Shown: piece after piece, positions 2,775 to 55,243 of the stretch | How positions within the stretch are numbered: the stretch's first letter is position 1 | How the letters are laid out: each line of letters opens with the position of its first letter | Assembly (NCBI GenBank): GCA_035559535.1 | Contig: DATMBG010000037.1 | Span: 1 to 64,000 of the forward strand | DNA: 64,000 nucleotides | DNA from: Candidatus Limnocylindrales bacterium | GTDB lineage: Bacteria > Moduliflexota > Moduliflexia > Moduliflexales > JAUQPW01 | Reading direction: 5' to 3' | Notes under the pieces: generated by a model | What the model saw: the letters and a program-made list of their open reading frames with translations, nothing else | What the model was told of the DNA's origin: nothing | The model's database searches: none | Program-made: the position numbers and the translations under genes

Positions 2775-2849
2775 TGTCTTAATTTCTGACATCCTTTGAT
2801 ATGTCTTATATAAAAAAGGTTTTTAACTTTATTGTAAGATTTTAAGACG
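2775..2849 (+). promoter_or_regulatory. Paired enhancer-like boxes (putative sigma54 activator sites)
   Basis: TGTCTTAATTTCTGACA (2775) and TGTAAGATTTTAAGACG (2833), 58 bp apart. Confidence 0.75.
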
Positions 2850-2936
2850 AACAATATCTAACGCATAAATCGCAAATAACCGGTAACAGGTTTCTAATTT
2901 CTTATTTTCGACTCTCAATCTTCGATTTTAAAGACC

Positions 2937-2951
2937 TGGTATATGGATTGC
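2937..2951 (+). promoter_or_regulatory. sigma54 -24/-12 promoter
   Basis: TGGTATATGGATTGC. Confidence 0.7.
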
Positions 2952-3029
2952 CTTAGAAAAAGATTGGAATTAAGGACTCCGAGATGAGGAGTAAAAGTAA
3001 AAATTCTTACCAAGAAAGGAAGTGATTTT

Positions 3030-3662
3030 ATGGAGGTTAATTATAAGGTCAATATCAATACCGCGGACGATAAAGAGCTTCTAAGTGTATTTAAAACTGA
3101 AGAGTTAGTCTGGGCAGTTAAATCTGGCCGTCCTTATAACAGTATTGAAGAACTTTATCGGGTAGAAGGGATTGACGAGGACCTCTTTGAGAAAATCCGA
3201 GATAGGATTATCGTGGAAGACTTCTCAGAGCAAGGTTTTATGGGGGTTGCCGATGTACGGGAAAGTGAAGAGTTGCAGGAAGGGGTTATTCCGGGATTTG
3301 ATATGGAAGAGCCGGAGGAATTTACCGGAGCTAAGGACCTAAGGATTGCGGTGGGAGAGATCAACGACGAAGAAGCCGAGATGAAGGAAATGTTCAGGAT
3401 TATAAAAGCACCTTCCGAATTGGAACGGCTGGAGGAAGAAGAAGAACTCCTAGCTGATCAAACTATAGAGGAAGAACGAGAAATAATTCCTGGCTATGAA
3501 GCTGAGACCAAGAAAATGCAAGAGGAATGGGACTCAGAGCAGAAAGAAGATAAAACCGGAGGAAACCACACTCCAGGAAGAAAATCTAAGGTTCGAGAAA
3601 AAAAGTCAGATAAAAAGCCTAAAGGATCCATTTCTAAAACTCATACAAATGATGAATCATAA
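3030..3662 (+). CDS. Helix-hairpin-helix (ComEA-like) domain protein with acidic and basic tail
   Basis: KVNINTAD...GRPYNSIEELYRVEGI...FEKIRDRI; Glu-rich middle, Lys-rich end. Confidence 0.75.
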   Translation: MEVNYKVNINTADDKELLSVFKTEELVWAVKSGRPYNSIEELYRVEGIDEDLFEKIRDRIIVEDFSEQGFMGVADVRESEELQEGVIPGFDMEEPEEFTGAKDLRIAVGEINDEEAEMKEMFRIIKAPSELERLEEEEELLADQTIEEEREIIPGYEAETKKMQEEWDSEQKEDKTGGNHTPGRKSKVREKKSDKKPKGSISKTHTNDES

Positions 3663-3715
3663 GCTGTGAATATAAACTGATTCCTGACTCATGATTTATC
3701 GTTTCATGACTCATC

Positions 3716-4660
3716 ATGTATCGATCAATTCTTGTACCACTTGATGGATCGACGTTGGCGGAACAAGCCTTACCGATAGCACGGGGTATTGTAAGCAGGA
3801 TAGGGGCAGGAGCAAAACTTCAGTTGGTGTTGGTACACGTACCCACCCCCGCCCGGTATGCTGATGGGGTACTCATTTTCGATGAAACCCTGGAAACTCA
3901 AGTCAGGGAGCATGAACATAACTACCTGAATAATGTGATAAAAAAACTAGCATTAGGTCCAGAGGTTTCTGTCACAGCGGAAGTACTAAGTGGGAGGATT
4001 GGAAAAGTTGACGAAATACTCCATGACCATATTGTAAATACAGGTGTAAACCTGGTGGTGATGGCGACTCATGGGCATGGCCCACTGGCTCGTTTCTGGC
4101 TTGGTAGTGTCACGGATAAGCTGATACGCCAATCAGTAAAACCTATTTTACTGGTGCCTGTACGGGAAAAGACAGAAGAAACGCCAGACCTCACCCGTGA
4201 AGAGATCTTTCAGCACATACTGATTCCTCTTGATGGGTCAGCTTTTTCGGAACAAATACTGGAACATGTGGTAGGACTTGGTAAACTGATGGAGGCCGAC
4301 TATACACTCTTACAGGTTGTGGAACCAGTGGTGCAGGTTGGTTATTCAATCAATGAAGAAATCATTCGACTAAACCAGATATTGCGGGAACATATCCAGA
4401 CTGAAGCCCAAAAATACCTGGATAGTGTGGCCGAACGGTTACGAGTGTGGTCCCTTCAAGTTCAGACAAGAGTCATTATCGATCGGCATCCAGCAACAGC
4501 TATTCTTGAAGAAGCAAGCAGGCAGGGAATAGATTTGATAGCTATGGAAACACACGGTCGAGGTGGTTTAACTCGACTTCTTATAGGGAGTGTAGCTGAT
4601 AAAGTATTACGGGGAACTTCTATACCGGTATTACTCCATCGTCCGCGCAGTGAGCCCTAA
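3716..4660 (+). CDS. Universal stress protein, tandem USP domains
   Basis: Two ILVPLDGS / ILIPLDGS starts and two THG...GSV motifs. Confidence 0.92.
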   Translation: MYRSILVPLDGSTLAEQALPIARGIVSRIGAGAKLQLVLVHVPTPARYADGVLIFDETLETQVREHEHNYLNNVIKKLALGPEVSVTAEVLSGRIGKVDEILHDHIVNTGVNLVVMATHGHGPLARFWLGSVTDKLIRQSVKPILLVPVREKTEETPDLTREEIFQHILIPLDGSAFSEQILEHVVGLGKLMEADYTLLQVVEPVVQVGYSINEEIIRLNQILREHIQTEAQKYLDSVAERLRVWSLQVQTRVIIDRHPATAILEEASRQGIDLIAMETHGRGGLTRLLIGSVADKVLRGTSIPVLLHRPRSEP

Positions 4661-4801
4661 AATTCTGATTTTAAAGCTATCGGAGCATGGGTTTATTTCA
4701 AAAGGGACGATCACGCAGGATTGTTCTGGGTATATTATGTCTTCTCTTTGACAGATTGATTAAGTCCTAAAACTTAGGATTTATATTAAAGGAGTGTAGC
4801 C

Positions 4802-6304
4802 ATGGCAGAAAATAACTCTACAACCCCCTCTTCTCCAAAAGAAATTAAGGAAGTTCCCTTGGGAACCCTTCCTCCTTTGAAGATGGAAAAAATCCCCCCA
4901 TTTAAAGGGATTTTTGCTTATATCGGACCAGGCATTTTATGGGCGGCTTTGGCTCAAGGTTCTGGGGAACTTATCTGGTGGCCCTACTTAACCGCTAAGT
5001 ATGGAGCTGCTTTTTTGGGTCTCCTGATCCCGGCCTCCTTACTTCAATACTGGGTTAATCTAGAAATCTGTAGATATACCGTTGCAACGGGGGAGACTCC
5101 GATGACAGGTTTTACGAGAATAAGTCGCCTGTATGCCTGGATTATGTGGGTCGGGATCTTTATTGAGAATGCGTGGCTGGGTGCCTATGCAACCGCCGGG
5201 GGCACTGCTCTGGCGGCTTTGACAGGATTTCCAGCAGGTTGGACAGCTCGGGGTCAGTCTTTATTTTGGGGTTATTTAACCATCAGTATCTATATCCTTG
5301 CAATGGTCTTGGGTCGAGTGGTCTATAATGTGATTGAGAAAATCTCGATGGTTGTTGTAGTTATTACAATGACCGGTATTGTTTTTGCCCTATTTCAACA
5401 AAAGGTCCTTGCTGTAACCTGGGATTTCTTCGCAGCTCTGATTCCCCATTTTACAATGCCCAGTAGCTTGCCAAACTGGGATCCCAAGGATCTGAATGTC
5501 TTGGTTACGAGCATTGCCTATGCAGGCGCTGGTGGTTTCGGTCAGTTGTTTATCGGCTACTGGATGCGGGATAAAGGAATCGGAATGGGAAAACTTATTG
5601 GACGTGTTACCTCGCCTATAACCGGGGAAGCTGAAACGATTCCTGCAACGGGGTATGTTTTTGCCGACACAGAGGAAAATAAACGAAATTATAAAGGCTG
5701 GGTTCATTATTTTAGTTTTGAAAATTTCATTGGGGTCTTCTTAAATCTCCTGACCACTATTATTATGTGTTGGCTCGCTTTTGCTCTCTTGTTACCGGAG
5801 GGTAAAGTCCCGAAGGGTTGGGAAATTGCAGTAGTTCAGTCGGCGTTCTTTGAGGTAGCCTGGGGTCCCATCGGTAAAGCCCTGTTCCTTATTGTTGCTG
5901 CAGCCTTCCTTTGCGATGCCTGGCTACAGAATACAGATGGTTTTTCTCGTGTTCAAGCCGATTTTTTCTACGCCAACATCCCGGGAGCTCAAAAGCTTCA
6001 TTTTCGTACCTGGTATTACATCTTTCTGGGTATCTTCAGTGTAATAACGATGACCACCATGGTTATGGCACAACCTGGCGTCTTGATCACGATTCGAGGA
6101 GTTGCTTCATTTCTGGCTATGGGTCTCTTCTGTCCTGGACTTGTCTACCTTAATTATGTGATGTTACCGAGAGTTTTCCCTCAATGGATTAAACCTCATC
6201 CTATTACACGAATTCTTATGATTCTGGCTACCTCAGCTTATATTGTCATGGGAATTATGTACCTTTATTTGAACCGGGAACAGTTGATAGGGTTGTTCAG
6301 GTAG
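4802..6304 (+). CDS. Nramp-like / APC superfamily transporter
   Basis: IGPGILWAALAQGSGELIWWP N-terminal motif, about 11 TM segments. Confidence 0.75.
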   Translation: MAENNSTTPSSPKEIKEVPLGTLPPLKMEKIPPFKGIFAYIGPGILWAALAQGSGELIWWPYLTAKYGAAFLGLLIPASLLQYWVNLEICRYTVATGETPMTGFTRISRLYAWIMWVGIFIENAWLGAYATAGGTALAALTGFPAGWTARGQSLFWGYLTISIYILAMVLGRVVYNVIEKISMVVVVITMTGIVFALFQQKVLAVTWDFFAALIPHFTMPSSLPNWDPKDLNVLVTSIAYAGAGGFGQLFIGYWMRDKGIGMGKLIGRVTSPITGEAETIPATGYVFADTEENKRNYKGWVHYFSFENFIGVFLNLLTTIIMCWLAFALLLPEGKVPKGWEIAVVQSAFFEVAWGPIGKALFLIVAAAFLCDAWLQNTDGFSRVQADFFYANIPGAQKLHFRTWYYIFLGIFSVITMTTMVMAQPGVLITIRGVASFLAMGLFCPGLVYLNYVMLPRVFPQWIKPHPITRILMILATSAYIVMGIMYLYLNREQLIGLFR

Positions 6305-7188: not shown

Positions 7189-7207
7189 AATTTACCTCTT
7201 GGTTATA

Positions 7208-7311: not shown

Positions 7312-7539
7312 AATATGTCTGAAAAGTACGACCTCTTTCCATAGAGAGTATTTAGTTTCAAGTATGAAAAGTCTATCTTATCCGGAGCGGACAAGATTTA
7401 CATCGACTTATTAAATACTTTTCAGATATACTCCAATGTCATTGTTTTAGAAATACCTTCTGCAATTTTCTTTCCTTGATTTGAAGGTCCTTTGTTTCTT
7501 ACTAACGAAGAGTTTTTAAAAGTTAACTTTTCTGTAATT

Positions 7540-7613
7540 TGTCTTAATTCCTGACAACCACGAATACGTTTGTAAACAAAGATCTTTTGCCATTATTGTA
7601 GGATTTTAGGACA
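7540..7613 (+). promoter_or_regulatory. Paired enhancer-like boxes
   Basis: TGTCTTAATTCCTGACA (7540) and TGTAGGATTTTAGGACA (7597), 57 bp apart. Confidence 0.75.
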
Positions 7614-7863: not shown

Positions 7864-7878
7864 TGGTATATTAATTGC
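7864..7878 (+). promoter_or_regulatory. sigma54 -24/-12 promoter of the pdh operon
   Basis: TGGTATATTAATTGC. Confidence 0.7.
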
Positions 7879-7934
7879 GTTACTTCCGTAATGAGGAGTT
7901 AAGACGAAGTTGATAAACTCAGAGGGGAAATTCC

Positions 7935-8990
7935 ATGCCAGAAAAAATTTTAGAATCTTTTGAAATCCGCCGCCTGGAGATCCTGGATCCGAAAGGTGAG
8001 GTTGATGAGTCTCTAATGCCTTCCTTATCTGCCGATGAGATAAAGAAGATGTATGAACTAATGATTCTTTCCAGGACCTTTGACCAGCGTGCCATAGATC
8101 TTCAGAGGGAAGGGAGATTGGGTACCTACGCATCTATTTTGGGGCAGGAAGCGACTCAAGTGGGGAGTGCTTTCACTATCCAGAAATCCGACTGGATATT
8201 TCCGTCCTTTCGGGAAATGGGGGTTTACATGACGTTAGGTTATCCTATTCATCAGCTCTATCAGTACTGGGCGGGGGATGAAAGAGGCCTTAAGGCGCCC
8301 GAGGATCTAAACATCTTTCCTATTTGTGTTCCCATAGGAACTCAGATGCTCCATGCCGCAGGAGCTGCTATGGCTGCAAAATATAAGCGAGATCCCATAG
8401 TTGTGATAACTTACTTTGGAGATGGAGCTACTTCCGAGGGTGATTTTCACGAGGCTTTTAATATGGCTGGGGTCTTCAAACTACCGGTTGTTTTTATCTG
8501 TCAGAATAACCACTGGGCGATATCCTTGCCCAGGGAACGACAAACTGCTGCCAAAACCCTGGCTCAGAAAGCTTATGCCTACGGTTTTGAAGGCATCCAA
8601 CTGGACGGAAATGATATCTTTGCAGTTTATAAAGGGACAAAAGACGCGATAGAGAAAGCCAGACGCGGTGAAGGTCCCGTCTTTATCGAATGTGTTACCT
8701 ACCGAATGTCGAGTCATACCACGGCAGACGATGCCACAAGGTATCGATCTAAAGAAGAAGTTGAAATGTGGAAACTTAAAGACCCTATTTTGAGGTTGAA
8801 ATTATTCATGGAGAGAAAAGGACTCTGGACGGAGCCTTACCAGAAAGAGATCGAAGAGAGATCCAGGCAGATCATCGATGAAGCCGTAAGGGTTGCAGAA
8901 TCCGTAGAACCCCCCCATCCTGAGGATATGTTCACCTACACTTACGCGAAGCCTACGTTCCGACAACTCAAGCAAATGGAGGATTTCTGA
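7935..8990 (+). CDS. pdhA: Pyruvate (2-oxoacid) dehydrogenase E1 alpha
   Basis: TPP motif GDGATSEGDF...NN; YRMSSHTTADD. Confidence 0.88.
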   Translation: MPEKILESFEIRRLEILDPKGEVDESLMPSLSADEIKKMYELMILSRTFDQRAIDLQREGRLGTYASILGQEATQVGSAFTIQKSDWIFPSFREMGVYMTLGYPIHQLYQYWAGDERGLKAPEDLNIFPICVPIGTQMLHAAGAAMAAKYKRDPIVVITYFGDGATSEGDFHEAFNMAGVFKLPVVFICQNNHWAISLPRERQTAAKTLAQKAYAYGFEGIQLDGNDIFAVYKGTKDAIEKARRGEGPVFIECVTYRMSSHTTADDATRYRSKEEVEMWKLKDPILRLKLFMERKGLWTEPYQKEIEERSRQIIDEAVRVAESVEPPHPEDMFTYTYAKPTFRQLKQMEDF

Positions 8991-8991
8991 T

Positions 8992-9957
8992 ATGCCGCAG
9001 TTAAATATGGTTCAAGCCATAAATCTGGCTTTAAAAGAGGAAATGATGCGGGATCCAGATGTGGTGATATTGGGCGAGGATGTTGGAAAAAATGGCGGCG
9101 TATTCCGTGTTACCGAAGGACTTTGGGAACAATTCGGCTCGGAACGGGTGATAGATACGCCTCTTGCAGAATCCGGTATTCTGGGAATATCCATTGGTAT
9201 GGCCGCTTATGGATTAAAACCTGTTGCAGAGATCCAGTTCGTAGGATTCACCTATCCGGCCTTAGATCAGATTTTCTCACATGCCTCACGTATCCGTTCT
9301 CGTTCGAGAGGAAGATATACCTGCCCCTTAGTTATTCGAACCCCCTATGGAGGAGGTATCAAGGCTCCGGAACTCCATGAAGAGAGCCCGGAAGCCCTCT
9401 TTTGCCATATGCCGGGAATAAAGGTGGTAGTACCTTCAACCCCTTACCATGCAAAGGGGTTATTGGTTTCTTCGATACGAGATCCAGATCCTGTTCTGTT
9501 CCTGGAAGCCACCCGACTTTATCGTCTTATAAAAGAGGAGGTTCCGGAAGGGGACTATACCTTCCCCCTTGGAAAGGCAAGGATTGTTCGGGAAGGTAAA
9601 AATATCACCTTGGTTGCATGGGGAAGCATGCTTCATAAGGTTTTACAGGCTGTAGAAGGTTATGATGATGTTGAAGTGATCGATTTAATGACGCTTCATC
9701 CCTTTGATGAAGAAACTCTATTTAAATCAGCCAGAAAGACCGGAAGAGTCATCATCGTACACGAAGCTCCTAAAACTTGTGGGTTTGGTGCAGAACTATC
9801 GGCAACTTTGGCCGAGGAAGCTATGCTTTATCTAAAAGCTCCCATTCTACGGGTTACCGGTTATGATGTGGTCATGCCTTTGCCTAAGTTAGAAGATTTC
9901 TACTTGCCCACCGTACAACGGATTAGAAAGGCCATGGAAGACATCATAAAATATTAA
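8992..9957 (+). CDS. pdhB: 2-oxoacid dehydrogenase E1 beta
   Basis: GEDVGKNGGVFRVT, DTPLAE, AEIQF. Confidence 0.88.
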   Translation: MPQLNMVQAINLALKEEMMRDPDVVILGEDVGKNGGVFRVTEGLWEQFGSERVIDTPLAESGILGISIGMAAYGLKPVAEIQFVGFTYPALDQIFSHASRIRSRSRGRYTCPLVIRTPYGGGIKAPELHEESPEALFCHMPGIKVVVPSTPYHAKGLLVSSIRDPDPVLFLEATRLYRLIKEEVPEGDYTFPLGKARIVREGKNITLVAWGSMLHKVLQAVEGYDDVEVIDLMTLHPFDEETLFKSARKTGRVIIVHEAPKTCGFGAELSATLAEEAMLYLKAPILRVTGYDVVMPLPKLEDFYLPTVQRIRKAMEDIIKY

Positions 9958-9970
9958 AGGAGTGTGGAGA

Positions 9971-13289: not shown

Positions 13290-13799
13290 TTAACTCTTAA
13301 CTCTTCGGCCTATCTCCTTTATCTGCTCTTCGTTCAAACAGATTTGGGCCATAGGATAAAGTATCTGCTCTTCTCTGCGGATATGGGATCTGAAGGAGTT
13401 AATGAATTCAAATAGAGGATATTGGAGTCCTGAAACCTTCTCTGGATCCCATAAGTTATCCTTCCAATGGCCGAATATGCCAAGTAATTGAAAACCACGC
13501 TCAAGGATTTCTCTGTGCTCATCCCGCATAATGGTCGTACATCTCCTATCGAATAGGTTGTCCTCCATGACCTGAAATAACGCCTGTTCCTCCTTATAAA
13601 AATGGGAGCGGATCTTGTTATGCAGGCAACGAGCCAGCTCCATCATCTCATCCAGTTCTTGTTCGTTCGGGGTAAAGCCTAAAGCCTTATCTTGAGTCTG
13701 TCGAAGAACCATCTCAACTCTATCTTGTAAAATATCGATGTCCCTGGTTATCTCTTCATGTTCAATCAATAAAACCTTTATAGGATTTAGATTCTCCAT
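13290..13799 (-). CDS. Hemerythrin (HHE) domain protein
   Basis: EH...HFYKEE...EH...HIRREE. Confidence 0.85.
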   Translation of the reverse strand: MENLNPIKVLLIEHEEITRDIDILQDRVEMVLRQTQDKALGFTPNEQELDEMMELARCLHNKIRSHFYKEEQALFQVMEDNLFDRRCTTIMRDEHREILERGFQLLGIFGHWKDNLWDPEKVSGLQYPLFEFINSFRSHIRREEQILYPMAQICLNEEQIKEIGRRVKS

Positions 13800-14093
13800 T
13801 ACACCCTCCCATCGCTTTTTTAATCCTACCTTTTTTTCCTATCGGAAGACAAAATTACCAGTTCCCATCGCTGTAACCAATCGTCAGAGTTTAAAATACC
13901 GAAAGAATTTATCAATTTAGTACGGGAAAAAAGAACCATCCCCCTGCCCTCCCGGAGGGATTTAGTTTTAGTAAGGAAGACGTGTCGTAAGTCCCTCCCC
14001 TTTTTGAAGGGATGAGGTTACACTTACTAAACGGATATAGATACCGTCTAGGTTTTATATTAAACTTTATTATAGTGCTTTGTAAAGTTAATT

Positions 14094-15233
14094 CTATTTA
14101 TGATGTGAGGTTTTACCGGTCGATTTTAATACAGCATGGCCCGTGTTTGCAAGGAATAGCAGCAAAGCAATTGCATTAAGCAGCCCACCCCACTGACGTC
14201 CCGGTAACCAGCCGGACAGATCCCCAATTACTCGCAAGAGTAGTGAAAAATGCAACAGAGCCAGGTGGAGGTAAAAGGCCAACCGAAAAGGTACGGGTAA
14301 TCTTGTTATTGCAGGGAGGATGATGGGAGCATGACCGAAAATCATGGCAAAGACAAAACCGAGGAAGGTAGAGTGGAGTATGGCATCGTAATGCGGCCCG
14401 GCTACAACTCCGCCGAAGAGTAGGGCTAGCAGTCCGCTCACTCCCAGCCAGACGTAACCAGACAGCAGACATAGGGCAGTAAATCGGGTTAATCCGCTGT
14501 GATGTACGGTGCGCCGGGCGATGTCGTAGAACAGCAGCCATAACATCAGAGCAATCATCCCTATTCCTGCCAGACGGACTCCCATGTCATAGGTGATAGG
14601 GGTCAGGATAAGCCCGATCAGGAAGAGGCTGCCAGCTAACAGAAAAGCTCCCTGAATCCTTCGAGAAAGGAGAAGGAGGCGACTTAATTCCAGTCGCTCT
14701 CCAGCAATGGTTAATACCAGAAAGCCGATCCACCAGAAAACAATATGGTAAATCGGCCAGCCGATGAGCCACAAGATATTACCTGTCCACCAAACCAACG
14801 TCCCAAGTCCCGTAATAACTGTGAAGAGGGTGGGTTGGTGATAGATGATTTTCACAGAGGCAACTACCAGTCCTAAGCTGCCCAGGGTCATAAGTAAGGG
14901 GCCGGGTAAACCCGGTAATCCCATGATCAAGGCCAGGGCTCCTAAACCAGTCAGCAGGGGCGCTGCATAGACCCAACGATGCTTCAAGGCTACCGCCCGC
15001 TCTAAGCCAATAAGGGTTCCCAGGAATCCGGAAACCATCAAAGGACCATGGGCCGACAGTAAGGCAGGCTGCAGGAAAGGCAACTCCCAACCCAGACGTA
15101 CTAATCCTGTCCCCAGTCCAACCAGCAGGGAGAATATCCCCAAGACCATGAGGGGAAAACGGGTACGATGGGGGGGTTCTGGAGAGACATGGCTTGTGGA
15201 GTCTCTACCCGTCAGAGGATTATATCTGTCCAT
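14094..15233 (-). CDS. NnrS-like polytopic membrane protein
   Basis: About 12 TM helices, HGPLMVSGFLGTLIGLER, HSTFLGFVFAMIFGH; downstream of nirK. Confidence 0.6.
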   Translation of the reverse strand: MDRYNPLTGRDSTSHVSPEPPHRTRFPLMVLGIFSLLVGLGTGLVRLGWELPFLQPALLSAHGPLMVSGFLGTLIGLERAVALKHRWVYAAPLLTGLGALALIMGLPGLPGPLLMTLGSLGLVVASVKIIYHQPTLFTVITGLGTLVWWTGNILWLIGWPIYHIVFWWIGFLVLTIAGERLELSRLLLLSRRIQGAFLLAGSLFLIGLILTPITYDMGVRLAGIGMIALMLWLLFYDIARRTVHHSGLTRFTALCLLSGYVWLGVSGLLALLFGGVVAGPHYDAILHSTFLGFVFAMIFGHAPIILPAITRLPVPFRLAFYLHLALLHFSLLLRVIGDLSGWLPGRQWGGLLNAIALLLFLANTGHAVLKSTGKTSHHK

Positions 15234-15288
15234 GTCGGCTTTGCTTTTAATCGGAGAAGCGACTGGTGGGTCCTCCCCTCTCCTGTTG

Positions 15289-15375
15289 TACGACCAGATC
15301 TGATAGAGACTGTTGTATTCAAATGAGTAGGGGCGACCGGCCAGTCGCCCCTACTCTTCCATCAGAATGGGTATA
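15289..15375. repeat. MITE/REP-like element, same family as 7208
   Basis: ACCAGATCTGATAGAG...GAGTAGGGGCGACCGGCCAGTCGCCCCTACTC...CCATCAGAATGGGTATA. Confidence 0.65.
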
Positions 15376-15413
15376 AGCAGTTAGGGTAATCCTTCCAGAT
15401 ACGAGTTCAAAAT

Positions 15414-17063
15414 CTAGTGAAGGGAACTGGCCTGTTGAGTTTTTTCGTCGATATTCTGAGCGCCTTCCGGTCCTAATCTATGAAATACTTCAAGATTCTC
15501 CGGCCCTTCGGCCATCAGGAAACCTACCAGACCCCGTTCTAACCGCGAGAGGGCGTGGTCCACTAAGATGTAACGTCCAGGAACTTCCAGTTTAAACTCT
15601 ACCATGGCCGCCCCCCCGGGGGGTACCAGCGTTGTCTGCACATCGGTCAGGGGAGGAGCCGTGAGGGATGCCTGGTTATAAACCCGATCAAAGATTTCAC
15701 CAATCACATGGAAGGACGAAGTAAAGTTGGGACCTCCGACGCCAAAGAAGATACGTACCGTCTCCCCTACCTTGGCTTGCATAGGATATTCCTTGGTGAG
15801 AGCTCCAACTGCTCCATTCAATACGAAGTATTCAGGCGTTTCCGCCAGGAGTTTCTCTACACTGAATTCTTGATACCCATGTTTTCCAAAGGGATTTTGA
15901 GTATAAATCTCACCCTGCATCACATAAAACTCACGATTCACTTCAGGTAAGCCACCTTCCGGTTCTACCAGGATAAGACCGTACATCCCATTGGCAATGT
16001 GATGGGCTACCATGGGGGTTGCACAGTGATAGACGTAAAGGCCTGGATTCATCGCTTTAAAAGTAAAGGCTTTCTCTGTATTGGGAGAAGCCTGTGTTAC
16101 GGCTGCACCTCCGCCGGGGCCAGTCACTGCATGGAAATCTACCGAGTGGATCATTCGGCTATCTCCATGGTTTTTCAAATGGACTTCCACGGTATCGCCC
16201 ACACGTACCCGTATAAAGGGGCCTGGAACCTTGCCATTGTAAGTCCAGTAGGTGTAGGTGGTACCCTCTGCCAACTGCCCCTTCAGCTCTATAGTTTCTA
16301 GATCTACCCGTACTGTCTGAGCAGGACGGGTTCCAATGGGAGGGGGTAAATCCGTGGGATTACGAACGACGCTTACCCCCGCAGGAGAAATGATTTCTCC
16401 GGCTTCTCCAACAACGATTTTACCTTCCATTCCAGCTTGCCGATGACCGGGTAATGAGCAAAAGTAGGGGAACTCTCCTTTCTTAGTCACCCGGAATGTA
16501 ATTACACTACTGGCTCCTTTACGGGCAATCTCTTCAGACTTGGCATTAAAATCGGGAAAGGTAATATCATGTAAAACCCCATCCCCGTTAATCAAGGTAA
16601 CCTGTACCACATTATCCAACATAACCGGCAGGGTGGGATTCACAACCCCATCAATAGCTCCTCCTACGCCGATAAAGACAAGTTTTTCCTCGGCAAGGCT
16701 CGTCTTCAATGTGAAGGTAACATTAGGTGTGTAAGAGGTAGGACTTTTCTCTGTAGCAGAAGTATTCTCCCCACTCCTGGAGGCAGAGTCTGCGGGTTGG
16801 GATACAGTTTTCACACCTGTATCCGCAGATCTCGGCAGCCCTAAGGCATGTTCGTGGATCCCAGTACTTGTAGTACCCTTCGTGTCAAGGGTGGAATCCG
16901 CCGACTTGGATAAAGTTTTTACCTCTCTATCTGAAGATTGTGCAGAAATGGGAATATTCGTATTACCGAGATTATAAAGAACAATAGCAGCCACCACAAA
17001 GGCAACAAGAACCCCCATGGCCAACAGTGAAAGAATCCGATCATACTTATTGGCGTTGTTCAT
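15414..17063 (-). CDS. nirK: Copper-containing nitrite reductase with N-terminal TM anchor and extra cupredoxin domain
   Basis: HSVDFH, YHC, HIANGM, FHVIG, VDHA; extra H...CSLPGH...M site; ATG 17063 follows GAGGAGG. Confidence 0.95.
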   Translation of the reverse strand: MNNANKYDRILSLLAMGVLVAFVVAAIVLYNLGNTNIPISAQSSDREVKTLSKSADSTLDTKGTTSTGIHEHALGLPRSADTGVKTVSQPADSASRSGENTSATEKSPTSYTPNVTFTLKTSLAEEKLVFIGVGGAIDGVVNPTLPVMLDNVVQVTLINGDGVLHDITFPDFNAKSEEIARKGASSVITFRVTKKGEFPYFCSLPGHRQAGMEGKIVVGEAGEIISPAGVSVVRNPTDLPPPIGTRPAQTVRVDLETIELKGQLAEGTTYTYWTYNGKVPGPFIRVRVGDTVEVHLKNHGDSRMIHSVDFHAVTGPGGGAAVTQASPNTEKAFTFKAMNPGLYVYHCATPMVAHHIANGMYGLILVEPEGGLPEVNREFYVMQGEIYTQNPFGKHGYQEFSVEKLLAETPEYFVLNGAVGALTKEYPMQAKVGETVRIFFGVGGPNFTSSFHVIGEIFDRVYNQASLTAPPLTDVQTTLVPPGGAAMVEFKLEVPGRYILVDHALSRLERGLVGFLMAEGPENLEVFHRLGPEGAQNIDEKTQQASSLH

Positions 17064-17088
17064 ATCTATCTCCCTCCTCATTTCAAAT

Positions 17089-17571
17089 TTATCCATTTGA
17101 AAGATTTCTGCAACATATCTTATAACGCTCTTCAGGTATATTCTTCATAGCTGCAAAAATTGCTTCCCTCTCCGGATCAGAGAGGGATTTATCAATGGTG
17201 GGATAAAGAATATACTCCTCCTTTTGGTTATGCAAAGAAAGTACCGATAAAAGCATTTGCTCTTCTTCCTCACTATCAGGATCCTGCTTTTGAACCTTTT
17301 CATGAATCGCTTCTAAATGTTTTCTTATCTGCTCATGTTCTATCCGCATGACCCGGGTGGGACCACTGTAAGCCATACCGGTTTTTTGTTCAAACATGAG
17401 GAAAAGAATCTCCTCTTCCCAAACAATATGTCTTTGCAGGCCAAACTTAAATTCCTTGAAGAATTCTTTAGCTTTTGGATAATCCACCTTTTTAAGCCTT
17501 TGAAAATTTCTAAAAAGCTCATCTAAACGGTTATGGTCTTTTTCAAAGTAGGTCTTAATACTCTCTTCCAT
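17089..17571 (-). CDS. Hemerythrin (HHE) domain protein
   Basis: DH...HIVWEE...EH...HNQKEE. Confidence 0.85.
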   Translation of the reverse strand: MEESIKTYFEKDHNRLDELFRNFQRLKKVDYPKAKEFFKEFKFGLQRHIVWEEEILFLMFEQKTGMAYSGPTRVMRIEHEQIRKHLEAIHEKVQKQDPDSEEEEQMLLSVLSLHNQKEEYILYPTIDKSLSDPEREAIFAAMKNIPEERYKICCRNLSNG

Positions 17572-17731: not shown

Positions 17732-19111
17732 TCAGAAAGAGATACGGTATCGCTTTATCTTCCTATAAAGCGAGTCCCGGGAGATACCCAAGATCTCAGC
17801 CGCTTTGGATTTGTTTCCCCCGGCCACCCTTAAAGCCTGTTCAATGGCAAACTTCTCCACCTGTTCCAGGGAAAGCGCGGAAGTGCCATAAAGCGTAGCC
17901 TCTCTTGCCTGTTCAAAGTCTCCTTCCGATTTATGTTTCTTAAACATTGTTTTAATATCCTGCACCGTGAGATTCTCTTTTTTCTCCCCGGCTGTTGCTA
18001 TAATTCCTTCCATCATGCTTTCCAATTCCCGGACATTGCCGTAAAACGGATAGTCTTGAAGAAGGCCGAATACTTCCTTTTCTATCCTTAACCGGTGTCC
18101 ATATTTCTCTCCATATTTCCTTACAAACCTTTCCGCCAACAAGGGGATATCTTCCCTTCTCTCCCGCAAAGGGGGAATAACAATGGTCAACGTCGATATC
18201 CGATAATAAAGGTCTTCACGGAGGTACTGACCTTTAAGCTCCTCCACAGGTCGATTAGAAGCTGATAAAACCCGAACATCCACTTCTATTTCTCGGGTAT
18301 CTCCAATGGCTCGCACTCTCCCATCCTGAAGTACTCGAAGCAACTTAACCTGAGCGTCTTTAGGCATCTCGCTGATCTCATCCAGAAATAGAGTCCCTCC
18401 GGTAGCCGATACAAAAAGTCCTTTATGATCCCGGATGGCCCCTGTAAAAGAACCCTTCTTGTATCCAAAAAGCTCGCTCTCAATCAACTCTTTAGGTAGG
18501 GCTCCACAATTGATTGGCACAAAGGGTTTATCCCTCCTCTGACTCCTGCGATGAATTGCCCTTGCCAAAATCTCTTTGCCGGTTCCGGTCTCACCGATTA
18601 TCAGCACCGGGATGTCGGATTGGGAGGCTACCAAAGCCTTGTCAACAACCTCTCGCATCTTCCTAGAGATAGCAACGATTTCCTCAAACCCTGATATGCT
18701 ATCCACCTGATCCTGAAGCTTGGCCACTTTCTCTCTCAATTCGCACATCTCCACAGCCCGTCCTACCTTTTTCAGAATCATATTCTTATCAAATGGCTTT
18801 AAGATGAAATCGTCGGCTCCCCGCTTTATGGCCTCAACAGCTGTCTGGATGGTGCCATATCCGGTCATGAGAATGACGGCTATGTCAGGGTCCACCTCCT
18901 TGAGCTTCTCCATGAGGGCAATGCCATCGATCAACGGCATCATGAGATCTACCAGTGCCAGACTGATAGTACCCCCGGTCTTAAGGATCTCAAGAGCCTC
19001 CCCTCCAGATAGAGCCACAGAAACACCGTATCCGTTCTTTTCGAAGAGGCTAGCAAGGGTCTCGACCATCTCTCTATCGTCATCAACAATTAAAATTTTA
19101 GGCAATTCCAT
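17732..19111 (-). CDS. sigma54-dependent response regulator (NtrC family)
   Basis: Receiver DLMMP, GETGTGKE, ESELFG, GSFTGA, Fis HTH NKSKAAEILGISRDSLYRK. Confidence 0.95.
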   Translation of the reverse strand: MELPKILIVDDDREMVETLASLFEKNGYGVSVALSGGEALEILKTGGTISLALVDLMMPLIDGIALMEKLKEVDPDIAVILMTGYGTIQTAVEAIKRGADDFILKPFDKNMILKKVGRAVEMCELREKVAKLQDQVDSISGFEEIVAISRKMREVVDKALVASQSDIPVLIIGETGTGKEILARAIHRRSQRRDKPFVPINCGALPKELIESELFGYKKGSFTGAIRDHKGLFVSATGGTLFLDEISEMPKDAQVKLLRVLQDGRVRAIGDTREIEVDVRVLSASNRPVEELKGQYLREDLYYRISTLTIVIPPLRERREDIPLLAERFVRKYGEKYGHRLRIEKEVFGLLQDYPFYGNVRELESMMEGIIATAGEKKENLTVQDIKTMFKKHKSEGDFEQAREATLYGTSALSLEQVEKFAIEQALRVAGGNKSKAAEILGISRDSLYRKIKRYRISF

Positions 19112-20285
19112 TGATTTTACCCTCTAAGTTTTCATACTGGAAAAGTGGAAAACGGATACTAACCGTAGTCCCTTTTCCCTCTTTGCTAACCACTGTTATC
19201 GAACCATCATGTTCTCGGACAATGTTTTGAGCTATGGATAAACCCAGTCCGGTCCCCTTCCCGGACTCCTTAGTGGTATAAAATGGTTCAAAAATATGTG
19301 GAAGGTGTTTCTCGGGTATACCTATGCCGTTATCGGTTATGCTGATCTCAATCTGAGGGTTACCCTGAGCCTGGTGAAACCTGTTCTGAGCTAAGTCGAA
19401 GGATCTGTTTTGAGCAGGATCGAAGGAGGTTGAATTCACGAGCCTAGAGGCCACCCGAATTTCACCTCCATCAGGCATTGCGTCAATGGCATTCATGAGA
19501 ATCGCTGACAGCAAAGCTTCAATCTGGCTTCGATCTGCCAGGATCCTCTTACCTCGCAACTCACTCTCATCCAAAATAACATTGACCTTTCTAACCTTTA
19601 AAGTGGGCTTGAAGAACGTAATCACAGAATCCACCAACTCTCTAAGTTCCGTGCTTTTTTTCTCCATGCTCGTTCTACGTGCAAACTGAAGGAGCTTTTG
19701 AACAAACTCCTGACAAAATTTTATTCCCCCTTCCAGCCTGTCAAGCTCCGGTTGTAGTAGCGGATCTTGAAATCTTTCCTTTATCATCTGGACTCTAAGA
19801 AGCATTGAAGTTAAAGGAGTATTTAAGTGGTGGGCGGTTCCAGCAGCCATCTTACCCATGGAGGTGAGTTTTTCCATTTCAATCAACCATTGTCGTAGCT
19901 TGATCTTCTCGCGGATATCTTTGGCTACTTCTATGAAATAAGGTTTGTGAGTCTGGGGATCATGGAAATACGAGAGGTTGATGCTTACATCTATTTCCTC
20001 CCCATTCCTTGCCAGTCTCTTAGTTTCAAGATCGTATACCTTTTCACCATTTTTGACCCTATCCATGAGCATCTTAAACTCTTCTTCCCTGCCCCTGGGT
20101 ATCGTCTTTAACAACCTCCCAAGAACTTCCTTACGTCCATAACCGTAAAGTTTCTCTGCGGTTGGGTTCCACTCTATGATCCTTCTGTCTGGATTGAATA
20201 AAACTACTGCCTCGGCAGAGAGTACCAATAACGAACACGCCCCGCAGGTAGGAGCGAGTCTCGGCTCCTCAAACCTTCTTTTCAT
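19098..20285 (-). CDS. Cytoplasmic PAS sensor histidine kinase
   Basis: PAS WNPTAEKLYGY, H-box AHHLNTP, NAIDA, DNGIG, GTGLGL; no TM segment. Confidence 0.92.
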   Translation of the reverse strand: MKRRFEEPRLAPTCGACSLLVLSAEAVVLFNPDRRIIEWNPTAEKLYGYGRKEVLGRLLKTIPRGREEEFKMLMDRVKNGEKVYDLETKRLARNGEEIDVSINLSYFHDPQTHKPYFIEVAKDIREKIKLRQWLIEMEKLTSMGKMAAGTAHHLNTPLTSMLLRVQMIKERFQDPLLQPELDRLEGGIKFCQEFVQKLLQFARRTSMEKKSTELRELVDSVITFFKPTLKVRKVNVILDESELRGKRILADRSQIEALLSAILMNAIDAMPDGGEIRVASRLVNSTSFDPAQNRSFDLAQNRFHQAQGNPQIEISITDNGIGIPEKHLPHIFEPFYTTKESGKGTGLGLSIAQNIVREHDGSITVVSKEGKGTTVSIRFPLFQYENLEGKINGIA

Positions 20286-20472
20286 TCACTCTTATCTTCA
20301 GGCTGTACCAGGTCAAAACTGATTTTTAATCGTTCCAGTCCCCCGGCGAACTACTCTAATCCCCTTTATCAAGACCCTAAACCCAGCCTGCCTTTCCTCC
20401 TTCTAAAAGAATAACCTCTTCCTGTTCGCCCTTGGAAATGACTTTGATCCATGACTTTGATAGGAGAATATC

Positions 20473-20487
20473 GCAATGAATATGCCA
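20473..20487 (-). promoter_or_regulatory. sigma54 promoter of the kinase-regulator-nirK unit
   Basis: Minus strand TGGCATATTCATTGC. Confidence 0.75.
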
Positions 20488-20607
20488 GACTTTACAAAGT
20501 CTTGATATCTCCTTGCAAGATGCCATAGTGCAAATGATTATCAATATCCCATTAGGCTTAGGAAGAATATGTCGTACGCTTACCGAAAGGTAGGAATTCC
20601 AGGGGAT

Positions 20608-20682
20608 TGTCTTAAAATCTTACAATATTAATCCAAACTTAATAATCATAAAGTTTATCTAATATCGTCCGAAGTTAAGACA
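20608..20682 (-). promoter_or_regulatory. Paired enhancer-like boxes between divergent sigma54 promoters
   Basis: TGTCTTAAAATCTTACA (20608) and CGTCCGAAGTTAAGACA+AAAGACA (20666), 58 bp apart. Confidence 0.75.
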
Positions 20683-20814
20683 AAAGACAGATTCTCTGAA
20701 GGACCCGCCGGGTCCTTCACTGGTTTCTACCGTTCAGGCTATCATCCATCTGAGCGGCCTTTTCCGGTCATTTACAATAAGATTACCCCAGCTACCGAAA
20801 CGATTAAAAATTAC

Positions 20815-22099: not shown

Positions 22100-22254
22100 A
22101 AAATGTTCTATTAACTGGATTGAAGAGGTCGCATAACCTGCTGGGAGGAGAATATCTTTCTCACCCCCTCATCCTTTCCCCTCCTGTAGATGGGGAGGAT
22201 CTTGGTCAGATTTAATAGGATCAATGCCCGGTATTTGATGATTTTCTTACAAAT

Positions 22255-22271
22255 TGTATGATTTTAAGACA
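22255..22271 (+). promoter_or_regulatory. Single enhancer-like box
   Basis: TGTATGATTTTAAGACA; no partner at the usual spacing. Confidence 0.55.
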
Positions 22272-41421: not shown

Positions 41422-41490
41422 AACCTTTTCCTCCTTCTTTCTCTGTTTTATGACTTCTGCCTATATTGCCTGAACTAATTAAGAAAGACC

Positions 41491-41505
41491 GCAATTAGTA
41501 TGCCA
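41491..41505 (-). promoter_or_regulatory. sigma54 promoter of the molybdoenzyme operon
   Basis: Minus strand TGGCATACTAATTGC. Confidence 0.75.
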
Positions 41506-41618: not shown

Positions 41619-41692
41619 TGTCTTAAAATCTGATAATGCTAAAGGAAACCCAATGTTTATAAATATATAAAGGAATGTCAGAAATCAGGACG
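41619..41692 (-). promoter_or_regulatory. Paired enhancer-like boxes
   Basis: TGTCTTAAAATCTGATA (41619) and TGTCAGAAATCAGGACG (41676), 57 bp apart. Confidence 0.7.
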
Positions 41693-42019
41693 AGAACAGA
41701 TTAAACGGATTCACCTTTTTAAGGAAGATCCTCTTGTTCCCCGTTCCTTCTAACTGATGGGTGATTCCTGACAACAGATCACCAGGTTTTTCTAAATTCG
41801 TTAATTAACCTGGCAATGTTATAAATTACCGAAAAAAACTCCGGTGGGATGGTCTGTCTGTAGCTAATGCGGCCTTGCTTCCGGGTCTTTTAACTCTGTA
41901 GGACCTGTTTATAAAAAACATTGTCAGATTTTACAGGCTATGGGTTCCAGGTATATAGCTGTTACTACAAGCAAATGAGATAAATTTCTGAAAAAGAAAA
42001 GGGTATCAAATTTGTCTTT

Positions 42020-42094
42020 TGTCTTAATTTTTGACATAATTTAATAACTTTTATAAATCTTAAATTTCTACGAATACTGTAAGTTTTTAAGACA
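42020..42094 (+). promoter_or_regulatory. Paired enhancer-like boxes
   Basis: TGTCTTAATTTTTGACA (42020) and TGTAAGTTTTTAAGACA (42078), 58 bp apart. Confidence 0.75.
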
Positions 42095-42192: not shown

Positions 42193-42207
42193 TGGCATTT
42201 GAATTGC
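42193..42207 (+). promoter_or_regulatory. sigma54 promoter of the amidohydrolase operon
   Basis: TGGCATTTGAATTGC. Confidence 0.75.
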
Positions 42208-42576
42208 TAATTTATATCTAATCGGTGCCTGTTCATAGGACTTTTATATAAGAGAGATCTTGGAAGCCGAGGTTGTGCCCGCAAATAGTTTCCCGATTGC
42301 CATAATCGAATATCTCAGCTTTTGCATGTGGCGGCTCATGGATAGGTACCAGGACTCCAGATCTAAAACAAGCATCAATCATTGAGAAAATGGACCTTAT
42401 ACTGGCCATTCTAAGGCTGCTTGCGAAGAAGGAGATGTGTAGGTATTGCATCTGACAGACCCTTGCAGCAATAAAGCCAGGGAGAGATAAAGCTTGAAGC
42501 AGAGGGAAGTTGTATCCTTCTTCCCCATCATCTTAGGAGGCCGAGATAAGCGTCTGGCTTGAACAGGGAGGTACGT

Positions 42577-44779: not shown

Positions 44780-44837
44780 CAGGGTTGTAGGGGCGAAGAG
44801 ATAGCAACAGCCATCCTTAGTTGATCAAAAAATTCCG

Positions 44838-47083: not shown

Positions 47084-47187
47084 AGGAAGTATCCCAGGCC
47101 GGTACCAAACCCCGGCCAGGGCTTTATATCACTGCTCATGTTGAAATACCTCTGATGAACCCTGTAAACTGAACCCACAGCAACAAA

Positions 47188-47259
47188 TTCCGGAGCATAT
47201 CCAGCAAACTCCTCCAGACCCAAGTCATAAACTTCCAAACCAGCTTCTTCCAGTATCTT
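47188..47259 (-). pseudogene. Possible remnant of a cobalamin-binding (corrinoid) protein gene
   Basis: Start-less frame reads KILEEAGLEVYDLG-LEEFAGYAPE, resembling the B12-binding domain segments LExAGFEVxDLG and EEFA...GYAP. Confidence 0.4.
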
Positions 47260-47269
47260 ATGAAAGGCA

Positions 47270-47340
47270 AATTGATATTACTACCAATTCTGATGGAATA
47301 GGTCGCATCCTGGGGGGGGAGCAACTCTGTATGGCCCTTA
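47270..47340. repeat. Degenerate copy of the 7208-type MITE/REP element
   Basis: AATTGATATTA and CTACCAATTCTGATGGAATAGGTCGCAT match the ends of the 7208 element. Confidence 0.5.
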
Positions 47341-47462
47341 TGCAAGCCGTCCTTCCCTTCCTTCCTCGCCGGCGAGGAGGGTTAGGGTGGGTCCATGCTT
47401 GCTTTACCTTCCCTTTCAATACTGACCTCCTATTAACTCCCTCTCAAACGTTAAGGAAAGTT

Positions 47463-47477
47463 GCAATTTATATTCCA
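47463..47477 (-). promoter_or_regulatory. sigma54 promoter upstream of RACo
   Basis: Minus strand TGGAATATAAATTGC. Confidence 0.6.
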
Positions 47478-47595: not shown

Positions 47596-47670
47596 TGTCC
47601 TAAAGTTCTACAACTCCAATAGAAACCCAATATCCATGGGAGATATCAGATGATGTCGGAAGTTAGGGCA
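47596..47670 (-). promoter_or_regulatory. Paired enhancer-like boxes
   Basis: TGTCCTAAAGTTCTACA (47596) and TGTCGGAAGTTAGGGCA+AAAGACA (47654), 58 bp apart. Confidence 0.7.
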
Positions 47671-47815
47671 AAAGACAGATCCGGTACCATTTTAAAGATT
47701 ACAGTATCTTATCTATCCTGGTCAGGAGCGATGGGAGCTGAAGTCCTCGGCGAAGTAAAGCCGTCTTTGCTCACATGGGCCTAGATGAGCCCATATATGA
47801 CCATACCAACAGATC

Positions 47816-54296: not shown

Positions 54297-54436
54297 AGGT
54301 GTATTCTCCTGTATCGGATCAAGACTCGCTACAAATAGCAGCGAGAATTTCCGATCTTACTTTTCTAAGAAATGCTCTACAACTCAGGTCTACCTTTCCT
54401 TTTAGGCTGGTTTTGACTTTTCTTGCCAAATTCCCT

Positions 54437-54925
54437 TTAATCCTTCCCATCGTCATGAGCTCCGGCCTGATTTTCCTCTTTAAGCTTTTTTTGATAGGCT
54501 AACTTAAGCTTTTCAATTACTTCCTGTTTCTCAGCCTCGGTAAGCTTAATCTGCTCTGAGAGAATGATGGCCATGGTCCCCGTTGGACTCGCAAAGAACT
54601 CTTCTAGAGTTTTACCGAAGCGACTTTGAACATCCACATAGGCGTTCGCCAAATCAGGTCCGGCTTTAGTTAGCGATTTGACACCTAACGAACTTACCTC
54701 ATGGCAGGTAAAACATCCCTTCTCAACAAAAAAGGCGCCTTCACCGGCAGGCTTTCCGTGTTTTTCCTCGGCTTCTTTGGATGCAGGCAGGTCAACTGCT
54801 TTTTTAGAGTCATGCTCAACAGGAAGATCCCTCTGCCTCCAGCTTAAAAATAAGCTTATACCTAAAACCATTATCACCAAACCCAGACCACCGATTAACC
54901 ATTTGAGCTTGATTTTTTTCTCCAT
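54437..54925 (-). CDS. Membrane-anchored monoheme cytochrome c (NosC-like)
   Basis: TM anchor, CFTCH, GPDL, GTM; first gene of the nos operon. Confidence 0.8.
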   Translation of the reverse strand: MEKKIKLKWLIGGLGLVIMVLGISLFLSWRQRDLPVEHDSKKAVDLPASKEAEEKHGKPAGEGAFFVEKGCFTCHEVSSLGVKSLTKAGPDLANAYVDVQSRFGKTLEEFFASPTGTMAIILSEQIKLTEAEKQEVIEKLKLAYQKKLKEENQAGAHDDGKD

Positions 54926-55042
54926 ATGAATTTCTCCCTTATTCTGTATGATCAAAACTACCAAAGCACGCCACAAATAGCAGCAAAACGTGCCTGTTTA
55001 GTCTTCTGATAACCTTCCATCGTTCGTTGCTAAAAAAATATC

Positions 55043-55057
55043 GCAATCACTATGCCA
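55043..55057 (-). promoter_or_regulatory. sigma54 promoter of the nos operon
   Basis: Minus strand TGGCATAGTGATTGC. Confidence 0.78.
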
Positions 55058-55169
55058 GGTTACACAAGGTCTTGACGAAGATGTTACAAAACTTAGGATT
55101 CCAGATAACCAACCGGTATAAAGGTTTGGTAAGGTGCAAACTTCAGGGAAAGAGAGAATTTATAGGATC

Positions 55170-55243
55170 CGTCTTAAAATCTTACATCCCTGACAAAAAC
55201 CAGGGAATTAAAGCTCTAAGTGATAATGTCGGAAATTAAGACA
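55170..55243 (-). promoter_or_regulatory. Paired enhancer-like boxes
   Basis: CGTCTTAAAATCTTACA (55170) and TGTCGGAAATTAAGACA+AAAGACA (55227), 57 bp apart. Confidence 0.78.

Follow-up and report, generated by a model that had tools for sequence, protein, structure and literature searches.

Activators of the NtrC family, such as NtrC, AtoC, ZraR and NorR, bind as dimers to inverted repeats about 100 bp upstream of −24/−12 promoters, and more than one site is required for ring assembly. The nearest characterised system to the one described here is that of NmpR in Myxococcus xanthus, an NtrC-like regulator for which the published account describes sigma54 promoters, two enhancer sites, autoregulation and a hypoxia-linked regulon that includes a universal stress protein (USP), a haem-copper oxidase with a P-type ATPase, a hemerythrin and an oxygen-independent radical-SAM haem enzyme (PMC11841059). 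Herein we analysed a 64,000-nucleotide stretch (the window; contig DATMBG010000037.1, hereafter C37, positions 1–64,000) of the 5.6 Mb, 58-contig genome of Candidatus Limnocylindrales bacterium (phylum Moduliflexota), in which pairs of 17-bp boxes stand at a fixed spacing upstream of predicted sigma54 promoters. We consider it likely that these paired boxes are the upstream activating sequences of one sigma54 regulon, which would be read by one or both of two related bacterial enhancer-binding proteins (bEBPs), R1 and R2, with low oxygen or respiratory stress as the likeliest trigger. The two systems are functionally parallel, both combining an NtrC-like regulator with two sites and sigma54, both including the regulator's own operon in the regulon and both controlling overlapping gene sets. 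The NmpR sites are GCGCA-N5-TGCGC with 14–15 bp between them in that account (PMC11841059), whereas those described here are TGTC-N9-GACA, 17 bp long, with a spacer of 40–41 bp. The Nmp system is described as a four-component phosphorelay with a protoglobin kinase, in contrast to the two simple PAS kinase/regulator pairs found here. Neither the site, the spacing nor the protoglobin-kinase phosphorelay of the NmpR regulon was thus recovered, and the present regulon is about three times the size described for NmpR and includes N-oxide reductases.

DosR (DevR) of Mycobacterium tuberculosis is a NarL/LuxR-type regulator that acts at sigma70 promoters and is not a bEBP, and one kinase of the DosR system is itself a member of the regulon. 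The DosR regulon consists of ~48–50 hypoxia-induced genes arranged in blocks and encoding, among others, USPs, HspX (alpha-crystallin), the ribosome-associated factor Rv0079 and the CapA/PGA_cap-like Rv0574c, and two sensor kinases, DosS and DosT, serve one DNA specificity (PMC5309233). The likeness to the present regulon lies in the clustered hypoxia/dormancy gene set and in two kinases for one DNA specificity, whereas here the phylum is another one, there are two regulators as well as two kinases, and the targets include N2O, nitrite and oxidase operons in full. For NtrYX of Brucella, Paracoccus and Neisseria, a published account describes a PAS kinase and an NtrC-family regulator with a role in redox sensing and in the expression of nar, nirK, nor, nos and oxidase genes (PMC9409073). 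NtrY is a membrane haem-PAS kinase, whereas the kinase encoded with R1 (HK1) is a short soluble protein, and a fixed double enhancer is not among the NtrYX features described in that account. R1 itself is ruled out as NtrX by a score of 331 bits against an equivalog cut-off of 600. The present enhancer departs from the classical NtrC, AtoC, ZraR and NorR ones in its centre-to-centre distance of 57–58 bp, in having a lone third half-site and in its fixed polarity. A literature search judged from titles and abstract openings returned neither a report of sigma54/NtrC control of clade II nosZ nor a study of regulation in Moduliflexota. What we describe is a well-supported in-silico regulon in which the enhancer geometry and the set of targets are unusual and the activators form a paralogous pair.

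All seven box pairs that the initial annotation of this stretch had listed were recovered in place (starts at 2775/2833, 7540/7597, 20608/20666, 41619/41676, 42020/42078, 47596/47654 and 55170/55227), with starts 57 or 58 bp apart in 7/7. Oriented by the nearest −24/−12 element, each enhancer unit of ~82 bp reads as an extra half-site (TGTCTTT, optional, or otherwise T-rich), a distal box of the type TGTCTTA-N3-TCTGACA, an AT-rich spacer of 40–41 bp, a proximal box of the type TGTAAGATTTTAAGACA (TGTAAGA-N3-TAAGACA) and the sigma54 promoter. The TGTCTTT that had been noticed ahead of the distal box is present in five of the seven units, each oriented by its own promoter. Both 17-bp inverted repeats have a consensus outer half (TGTCTTA) and a variant inner half, so that the unit is nearly dyad-symmetric; it is the variant inner halves, together with the extra half-site, that give it polarity. 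Also conserved among copies are a GG-TTT(T) patch ~12–22 bp upstream of the proximal box and a T run just before the distal box. The AT content of the spacer is 69%, compared with 61% in the surrounding intergenic DNA, and no third canonical box was found inside the spacer, where mean position weight matrix (PWM) scores are negative at all offsets. The −24/−12 elements of the window conform to TGG(C/T/A)AT-N5-TTGC (i.e., TGGYAT or TGGAAT, N5, TTGC). Their gaps from the proximal box are 88, 251, 121, 114, 99, 119 and 113 bp in window order, which agrees with the earlier description of pairs upstream of a GG-N10-GC promoter (about 90–130 bp, and about 250 bp at pdh).

A symmetric PWM built from the 14 boxes of the window gave 667 matches of at least 8 bits in the whole genome, and 686–727 in four first-order Markov genomes used as a control. 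The genome holds 20 box pairs at spacings of 55–59 bp (2, 2, 5, 10 and 1, respectively), while any other spacing between 10 and 200 bp occurs 0–2 times; the four Markov genomes hold 1, 0, 0 and 0 pairs at 55–59 bp. Single boxes are thus near chance level and pairs are not, since the Markov genomes match in box number but not in pairs. Nor are the box pairs scattered over the genome independently of sigma54 promoters, which is the pattern that had been named beforehand as counting against a regulon: the pairs are far above chance and promoter-linked. A strict TGGYWY-N5-TTGC element lies within 350 bp downstream of 14 of the 20 pairs (genome total 183, against 83 expected from base composition), variant promoters occur at others (TGGAAT at pairs 47596 and 176764, TGGCAA and TGGAGT at the pairs on contigs C19 and C43), and pair 66949 has a CGGCAT-N5-TTGCG site ~98 bp away, as read from the sequence. 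The pair on contig C58 has no promoter at all and can probably be put down to chance. Truly isolated boxes of at least 13 bits number 37, and not one of them has a sigma54 PWM match of at least 12 bits within 400 bp; among the 43 unpaired boxes examined, five have a match of at least 12 bits, each of them within a multi-box cluster, and the match near the box at 22255 scores 11.9 bits. The genome encodes one rpoN gene, and together with GG-N10-GC elements upstream of genes this is what defines sigma54 promoters. An enhancer of this kind should consist of two or more inverted repeats ~80–200 bp ahead of the promoter, conserved and bound by the activator; the box pairs show the pairing, the position and the conservation (see below), and are very likely the upstream activating sequences of these promoters.

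Within the window the units lead into the following operons, with gene assignments from Pfam and NCBIfam. Double enhancer 1 (2768..2849, plus strand; half-site 2768–2774, distal box 2775–2791, 41-bp spacer, proximal box 2833–2849; 23.1 and 17.2 bits) precedes a promoter at 2937..2952 (plus) and genes for an HHH protein (3030–3662), a tandem USP (3716–4660) and Nramp (4802–6304), and a divergent sigma54 promoter at 2624..2639 (minus) faces an open reading frame (ORF) of 120 aa (2137–2499). Double enhancer 2 (7533..7613, plus; boxes 7540–7556 and 7597–7613) lies upstream of a promoter at 7864..7879 (plus), 251 bp past the proximal box, which would drive genes for the pyruvate dehydrogenase (PDH) subunits E1alpha, E1beta and E2 and both subunits, alpha and beta, of ADP-forming acetyl-CoA synthetase (ACD; 7935–13178). 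Double enhancer 3 (20608..20689, minus; proximal box 20608–20624, distal box 20666–20682, extra half-site 20683–20689) belongs to the HK1-R1 operon, whose promoter at 20472..20487 (minus) scores 29.6 bits. This operon encodes HK1 (19098..20285, minus), R1 (17732..19111, minus) and, in its remainder (13290..17571, minus), a hemerythrin, a cupredoxin-fused NirK (15414–17096; 337 bits for Cu nitrite reductase in NCBIfam, against a cut-off of 296), a 379-aa unknown protein and a second hemerythrin. The gene divergent from the R1 operon (20918–22099) encodes a radical SAM/SPASM protein that resembles the haem b synthase AhbD by kinship and, at 471 bits with a cut-off of 395, is a TIGR04053 equivalog. 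The promoter that the initial annotation had placed before it was not recovered, as no sigma54-type element of at least 7 bits faces the gene in the region scanned (20286–20917).

Double enhancers 4 (41619..41699, minus; boxes 41619–41635 and 41676–41692) and 5 (42013..42094, plus; extra half-site 42013–42019, boxes 42020–42036 and 42078–42094) lie close together. The former precedes a promoter at 41490..41505 (minus) and genes for a Psr/Arr-like molybdoenzyme, an FeS subunit, NrfD, a chaperone, a polyferredoxin, a porin, pyruvate:ferredoxin oxidoreductase (PFOR) and a CMD protein (41421 down to 29137), and the latter a promoter at 42193..42208 (plus) and amidohydrolase_2, cytochrome c and PCP_red-domain genes (42559–45416). 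Double enhancer 6 (47596..47677, minus; boxes 47596–47612 and 47654–47670, extra half-site 47671–47677) is followed by a variant promoter, TGGAAT..TTGCA, at 47462..47477 (minus) and by the gene for RACo (45413–47083). The amidohydrolase and RACo transcripts would both have unusually long leaders between promoter and start codon (42209–42558, ~350 bp, and 47084–47461, ~380 bp). No Rfam family reached its gathering score in the window, long leaders included, and no local repeats were found in the RACo leader, of which one part (47320–47440) has a 73%-identical copy on contig C10. Double enhancer 7 (55170..55250, minus; boxes 55170–55186 and 55227–55243, extra half-site 55244–55250) precedes a promoter at 55042..55057 (minus) and genes for a 179-aa ORF, a Sec-type clade II NosZ, a 232-aa ORF and NosD, F, L and Y (54976 down to 47816). 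With a TIGR04246 score of 920 bits against a cut-off of 625 and with NosD, an ABC ATPase, NosL and an ABC-2 permease adjacent, this is a clade II (Sec-dependent) nos cluster.

The end of the window holds an operon of the type II dimethyl sulfoxide reductase family (55316..64000, minus), with genes for an alpha subunit (61201 to contig position 64692), a beta subunit, a chaperone, a hemerythrin and CopD-like proteins, and a cytochrome c/EB_dh gene upstream. It is probably an eighth target, to be driven from pair 66949/67007 just beyond the window. Between its genes lies a dispersed intergenic repeat of ~73 bp (57523–57595, also 57389–57476 and 58392–58480), which has 26 further BLAST matches in the genome and many in the sister genome described below, and which looks like a repetitive extragenic palindrome (REP) or miniature inverted-repeat transposable element (MITE). 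The box at 22255, which had been taken for a single one, is present but not quite alone, as a weak box of 5.8 bits starts at 22235, 20 bp away; this irregular site (22235..22271, plus) is followed by a sigma54-like site at 22420 (11.9 bits), and the TonB receptor, pyrroloquinoline quinone dehydrogenase and ExbBD-TonB genes downstream are tentatively counted as its target.

The regulon that the initial annotation had described as island-wide exceeds the window, which contains 7 of 18 canonical loci. This number follows from the 20 pairs, as the C58 pair is a probable chance match and two pairs overlap at one three-box locus; C37 carries ten of the loci, C33 three and C41 two, and C19, C43 and C46 carry one apiece. 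Three further loci have irregular spacing (C33 757/827/906, C41 3461/3540 and 22235/22255 in the window). Because several enhancers serve divergent promoters (those at 2775, C33 8854 and C41 5407), we count ~24 sigma54 promoters in all. In a sister genome of the same genus (94–96% DNA identity), one contig (C15 of that genome) carries, in this order, window positions 1502–5825, C19, C41 and the start of C33, and the ends of C37, C19, C41 and C33 are therefore very probably adjacent in the source genome. Joined in this way, they very probably form a super-island of ~130 kb, twice the window size, with 14 of the 18 canonical loci and all three irregular ones. The four canonical loci outside it are those at C37 176764, C37 182396, C43 and C46.

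Beyond the window, tandem USPs recur in four more predicted target operons, of which one also encodes NrfH-NrfA. The other predicted targets there are a four-subunit haem-copper oxidase; Hsp20, next to two DUF2267 proteins; a fusion of the ribosome hibernation factor HPF with a cold-shock domain, accompanied by CMD and BON proteins; two transport systems, one PhoU/Pst-like and one a MacB-type exporter; NAPRTase, a PGA_cap protein and a copper P-type ATPase; a USP together with a Lon-like protease; a small ORF with an L,D-transpeptidase and a sigma70-family factor; and a USP, acyl-CoA ligase and second PDH operon. The sigma70-family factor (290 aa, with regions 1.2, 2, 3 and 4) and the L,D-transpeptidase stand behind a three-box enhancer on contig C33 (locus L001:17362–19695), and this factor suggests a secondary sigma cascade within the regulon. 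By annotation, the targets fall into N-oxide/anaerobic respiration (NirK, clade II NosZ, NrfHA and two molybdoenzymes), a haem-copper oxidase, ATP conservation from pyruvate to acetate (PDH-ACD and PFOR) and a dormancy-type set (tandem USPs, Hsp20, HPF, hemerythrins, NAPRTase, Lon-like protease and the sigma70-family factor).

The idea of an anoxia master switch, as proposed earlier for this locus, proves too narrow in the face of the haem-copper oxidase and the many stress- and dormancy-type targets. With the oxidase and the stress set included, the regulon reads less as a switch for anoxia than as a programme for hypoxia or energy stress, and oxygen limitation or respiratory/redox stress is retained as the likeliest trigger, although we regard low oxygen or redox as the actual signal as an evenly balanced proposition. 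The main competitor keeps the cis-architecture and the binder and replaces the signal by general starvation, stationary phase or a nitric-oxide/nitrite response. It draws on HPF, Hsp20, the Lon-like protease, BON, the PhoU/Pst-like transporter and the sigma70-family factor, all typical of growth arrest, on an oxidase that shares its regulon with anaerobic reductases, on a PAS domain in HK1 with no obvious haem histidine, and on hemerythrins and NirK that could point to nitric oxide. However, terminal reductases, hemerythrins, PFOR and PDH-ACD are present at a density that fits the characterised hypoxia regulons (PMC11841059, PMC5309233), and nitrogen- or carbon-assimilation genes are not among the targets, so that such a signal appears rather improbable to us.

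The genome encodes 28 full bEBPs. The initial annotation had proposed one activator for seven operons, with the 17732..19111 regulator as the best candidate. The shared double enhancer before the sigma54 promoters of nos, nirK, molybdoenzyme/PFOR, PDH-ACD, RACo, USP and amidohydrolase genes stands, and in silico R1 has gained support as its reader, in that its own operon carries a pair and its recognition helix travels with the box (see below). The single activator is probably two: a paralog, R2 (C37 173809–175185; L003:1810–3186), is 74% identical to R1 (337/458) and has the same recognition helix, LGISRDSLYRK. R1 lies 1497 bp and R2 1579 bp from a pair (176764 for the latter), and no other of the 28 bEBP genes lies within 9.8 kb of one. 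Both have the receiver (REC), AAA+ and HTH_8 architecture of NtrC-family bEBPs (PF00072, PF00158, PF25601 and PF02954) and the motifs GETGTGKE, LFLDEI and DLMMP, and the GAFTGA loop reads GSFTGA in R1 and GAFTGA in R2. R1 misses the cut-offs of all NCBIfam equivalogs tested (NtrC, AtoC, NtrX, GlrR, ZraR, NorR, NifA and LuxO), R2 likewise, with best scores against cut-offs of 362/714 bits for AtoC, 354/559 for NtrC, 331/600 for NtrX and 298/476 for NorR.

Each regulator has its own PAS kinase. HK1 is a short cytoplasmic PAS-HisKA-HATPase protein, assigned from Pfam and below every NCBIfam equivalog cut-off, with weak similarity only; the kinase gene that follows R2 encodes four PAS domains (L003:2–1684). 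Since R1 and its kinase are in an operon with its own enhancer, positive feedback is predicted. For R2, no box or sigma54 site was found in its 659-bp upstream region, and R2 may be constitutive. Immediately ahead of its PAS domain, at residues 14–17, HK1 has a CGAC motif, which is a possible redox site of the thiol or metal type. Separately, a possible third sensor is encoded 1.6 kb from pair 66949/67007, a GAF-GAF-HisKA-HATPase kinase (C37:68605–70317, L002:6606–8318, minus strand) with a domain order similar to that of the haem-GAF kinases DosS and DosT.

Among 30 relatives, R1 orthologs (E ≤ 1e-100) were found in the same-genus genome only. Outside the genus no homolog exceeds 51% identity in genome contigs or 48% in metagenome contigs; the nearest ones are from Acidobacteriota metagenome-assembled genomes (46–51% identical) and have the helix LGISRDTLYRK. 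The helix LGISRD[ST]LYRK is absent from the other 26 bEBPs of the source genome and from five more distant homologs. A box of at least 12 bits (of the type TGTCCGA-N3-TCGGACA) occurs at 12 of 15 loci of close homologs (148 kb), compared with 5 of 145 loci of bEBPs with at most 45% identity (1.43 Mb), and the three close-homolog loci without a box are on contigs of 3.0–5.4 kb. The Acidobacteriota boxes lie upstream of GG-N10-GC elements and of cytochrome c, Rieske, cytochrome b or multihaem operons, and adjoin a PAS-kinase, bEBP and cytochrome c gene set. On this comparison the box travels with the R1-type helix across phyla and stands again before respiratory genes. In loci L020–L030, L100 and L103 the set is conserved (PAS kinase, bEBP and multi-domain cytochrome c, then tandem boxes and GC-rich −24/−12 elements), which looks like an undescribed respiratory regulon of that phylum.

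These observations bear on who reads the boxes. A different protein might read them, whether from among the remaining 26 bEBPs or from outside that family, with R1 and R2 as mere regulon members; regulators are often targets of other regulators, and R2 has no box upstream. Against this, sigma54 promoters need a bEBP and the pairs lie at classical enhancer distance, no bEBP gene besides R1 and R2 lies within 9.8 kb of a pair, and the box follows the R1-type helix into another phylum (12/15 vs 5/145 loci), leaving another binder very unlikely. R1 and/or R2 are probably the proteins that bind the paired boxes.

Comparison of the source and sister genomes gave difference rates of 345/4027 (8.6%) in ordinary intergenic DNA, 12/255 (4.7%) in boxes, 0/49 (0%) in the extra half-site, 2/128 (1.6%) in promoters and 33/284 (11.6%) in spacers (Fisher p = 0.0019 for boxes plus half-site and p = 0.0019 for promoters). 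The 57–58 bp spacing is kept in the sister genome for 7/7 window pairs; judged by these alignments, the constraint on the spacer is one of length and not of sequence. We give next to no credence to the units being copies of a dispersed MITE- or REP-like repeat with no regulatory role, since, although BLAST aligns the units mutually at 74–76% identity over ~85 bp and dispersed short repeats exist in the genome, the boxes alone are conserved, the spacers vary from copy to copy and, between the sister genomes, change at least as fast as neutral DNA, 18/18 units point to a sigma54 promoter within a narrow range of distances, and the target functions are coherent.

In the regulon that we propose, phosphorylated NtrC-type activator dimers would bind both boxes, an AAA+ ring would assemble, and the DNA would loop to the −24/−12 promoter ~90–120 bp away and allow it to open. 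R2 with its multi-PAS kinase could act as a constitutive primer and R1 with HK1 as a self-amplifying stage, in a two-stage logic. Several points weigh against this proposal. The PWM derives from the same 14 boxes that it recovers in the window, so the window sites match by construction and the independent sites are those outside the window only. The split at 46% identity between close and distant R1 homologs was set after the data had been seen, and the Acidobacteriota boxes are tandem, 18–19 bp apart, and not 57–58 bp. A simple anoxia signal sits poorly with a haem-copper oxidase in the target set, and oxygen sensing is not evident, as inspection by eye found no histidine at the FixL/DosP-type haem position of the HK1 PAS domain. 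The suggestion that R2 is constitutive has the missing box and sigma54 site upstream as its sole basis. Finally, the centre-to-centre distance of 57.3 bp corresponds to 5.46 helical turns and would thus place the two dimers on opposite faces of straight DNA, so that assembly may need an additional factor; studied bEBP enhancers have spacings of ~2–3 turns, compared with ~5.5 turns here. Possible geometries are a bent spacer, DNA wrapped round the ring, or two boxes that nucleate separately, and four HU/IHF genes are present in the genome.

A further-reaching version, which we hold as tentative and on balance doubtful, is that of a new enhancer geometry and circuit, in which dimers exactly 5.5 turns apart, and R1 and R2 with the same specificity and different PAS sensors, would form a two-stage respiration-to-dormancy switch and the first direct sigma54/bEBP control of a clade II N2O reductase. 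Here the DNA would be half-wrapped round the AAA+ ring or bent by an HU/IHF-type protein, and the lone third half-site would seed a third dimer. Such a switch, resembling DosT followed by DosS, would take the Moduliflexota cell from trace O2/N-oxide respiration into dormancy.

In many soils and reactors, clade II nosZ is the principal biological sink for N2O, and its control is poorly understood. If the regulon proposed here is real, a defined enhancer and a named candidate activator would make the control of clade II nosZ directly testable, and the strict 57–58 bp spacing would offer a clean natural test case for bEBP ring assembly on DNA. It would also mean that a DosR-like hypoxia/dormancy gene set can be wired via sigma54, and would provide a regulatory handle on an uncultured phylum that is reportedly known from bulking in anaerobic reactors.

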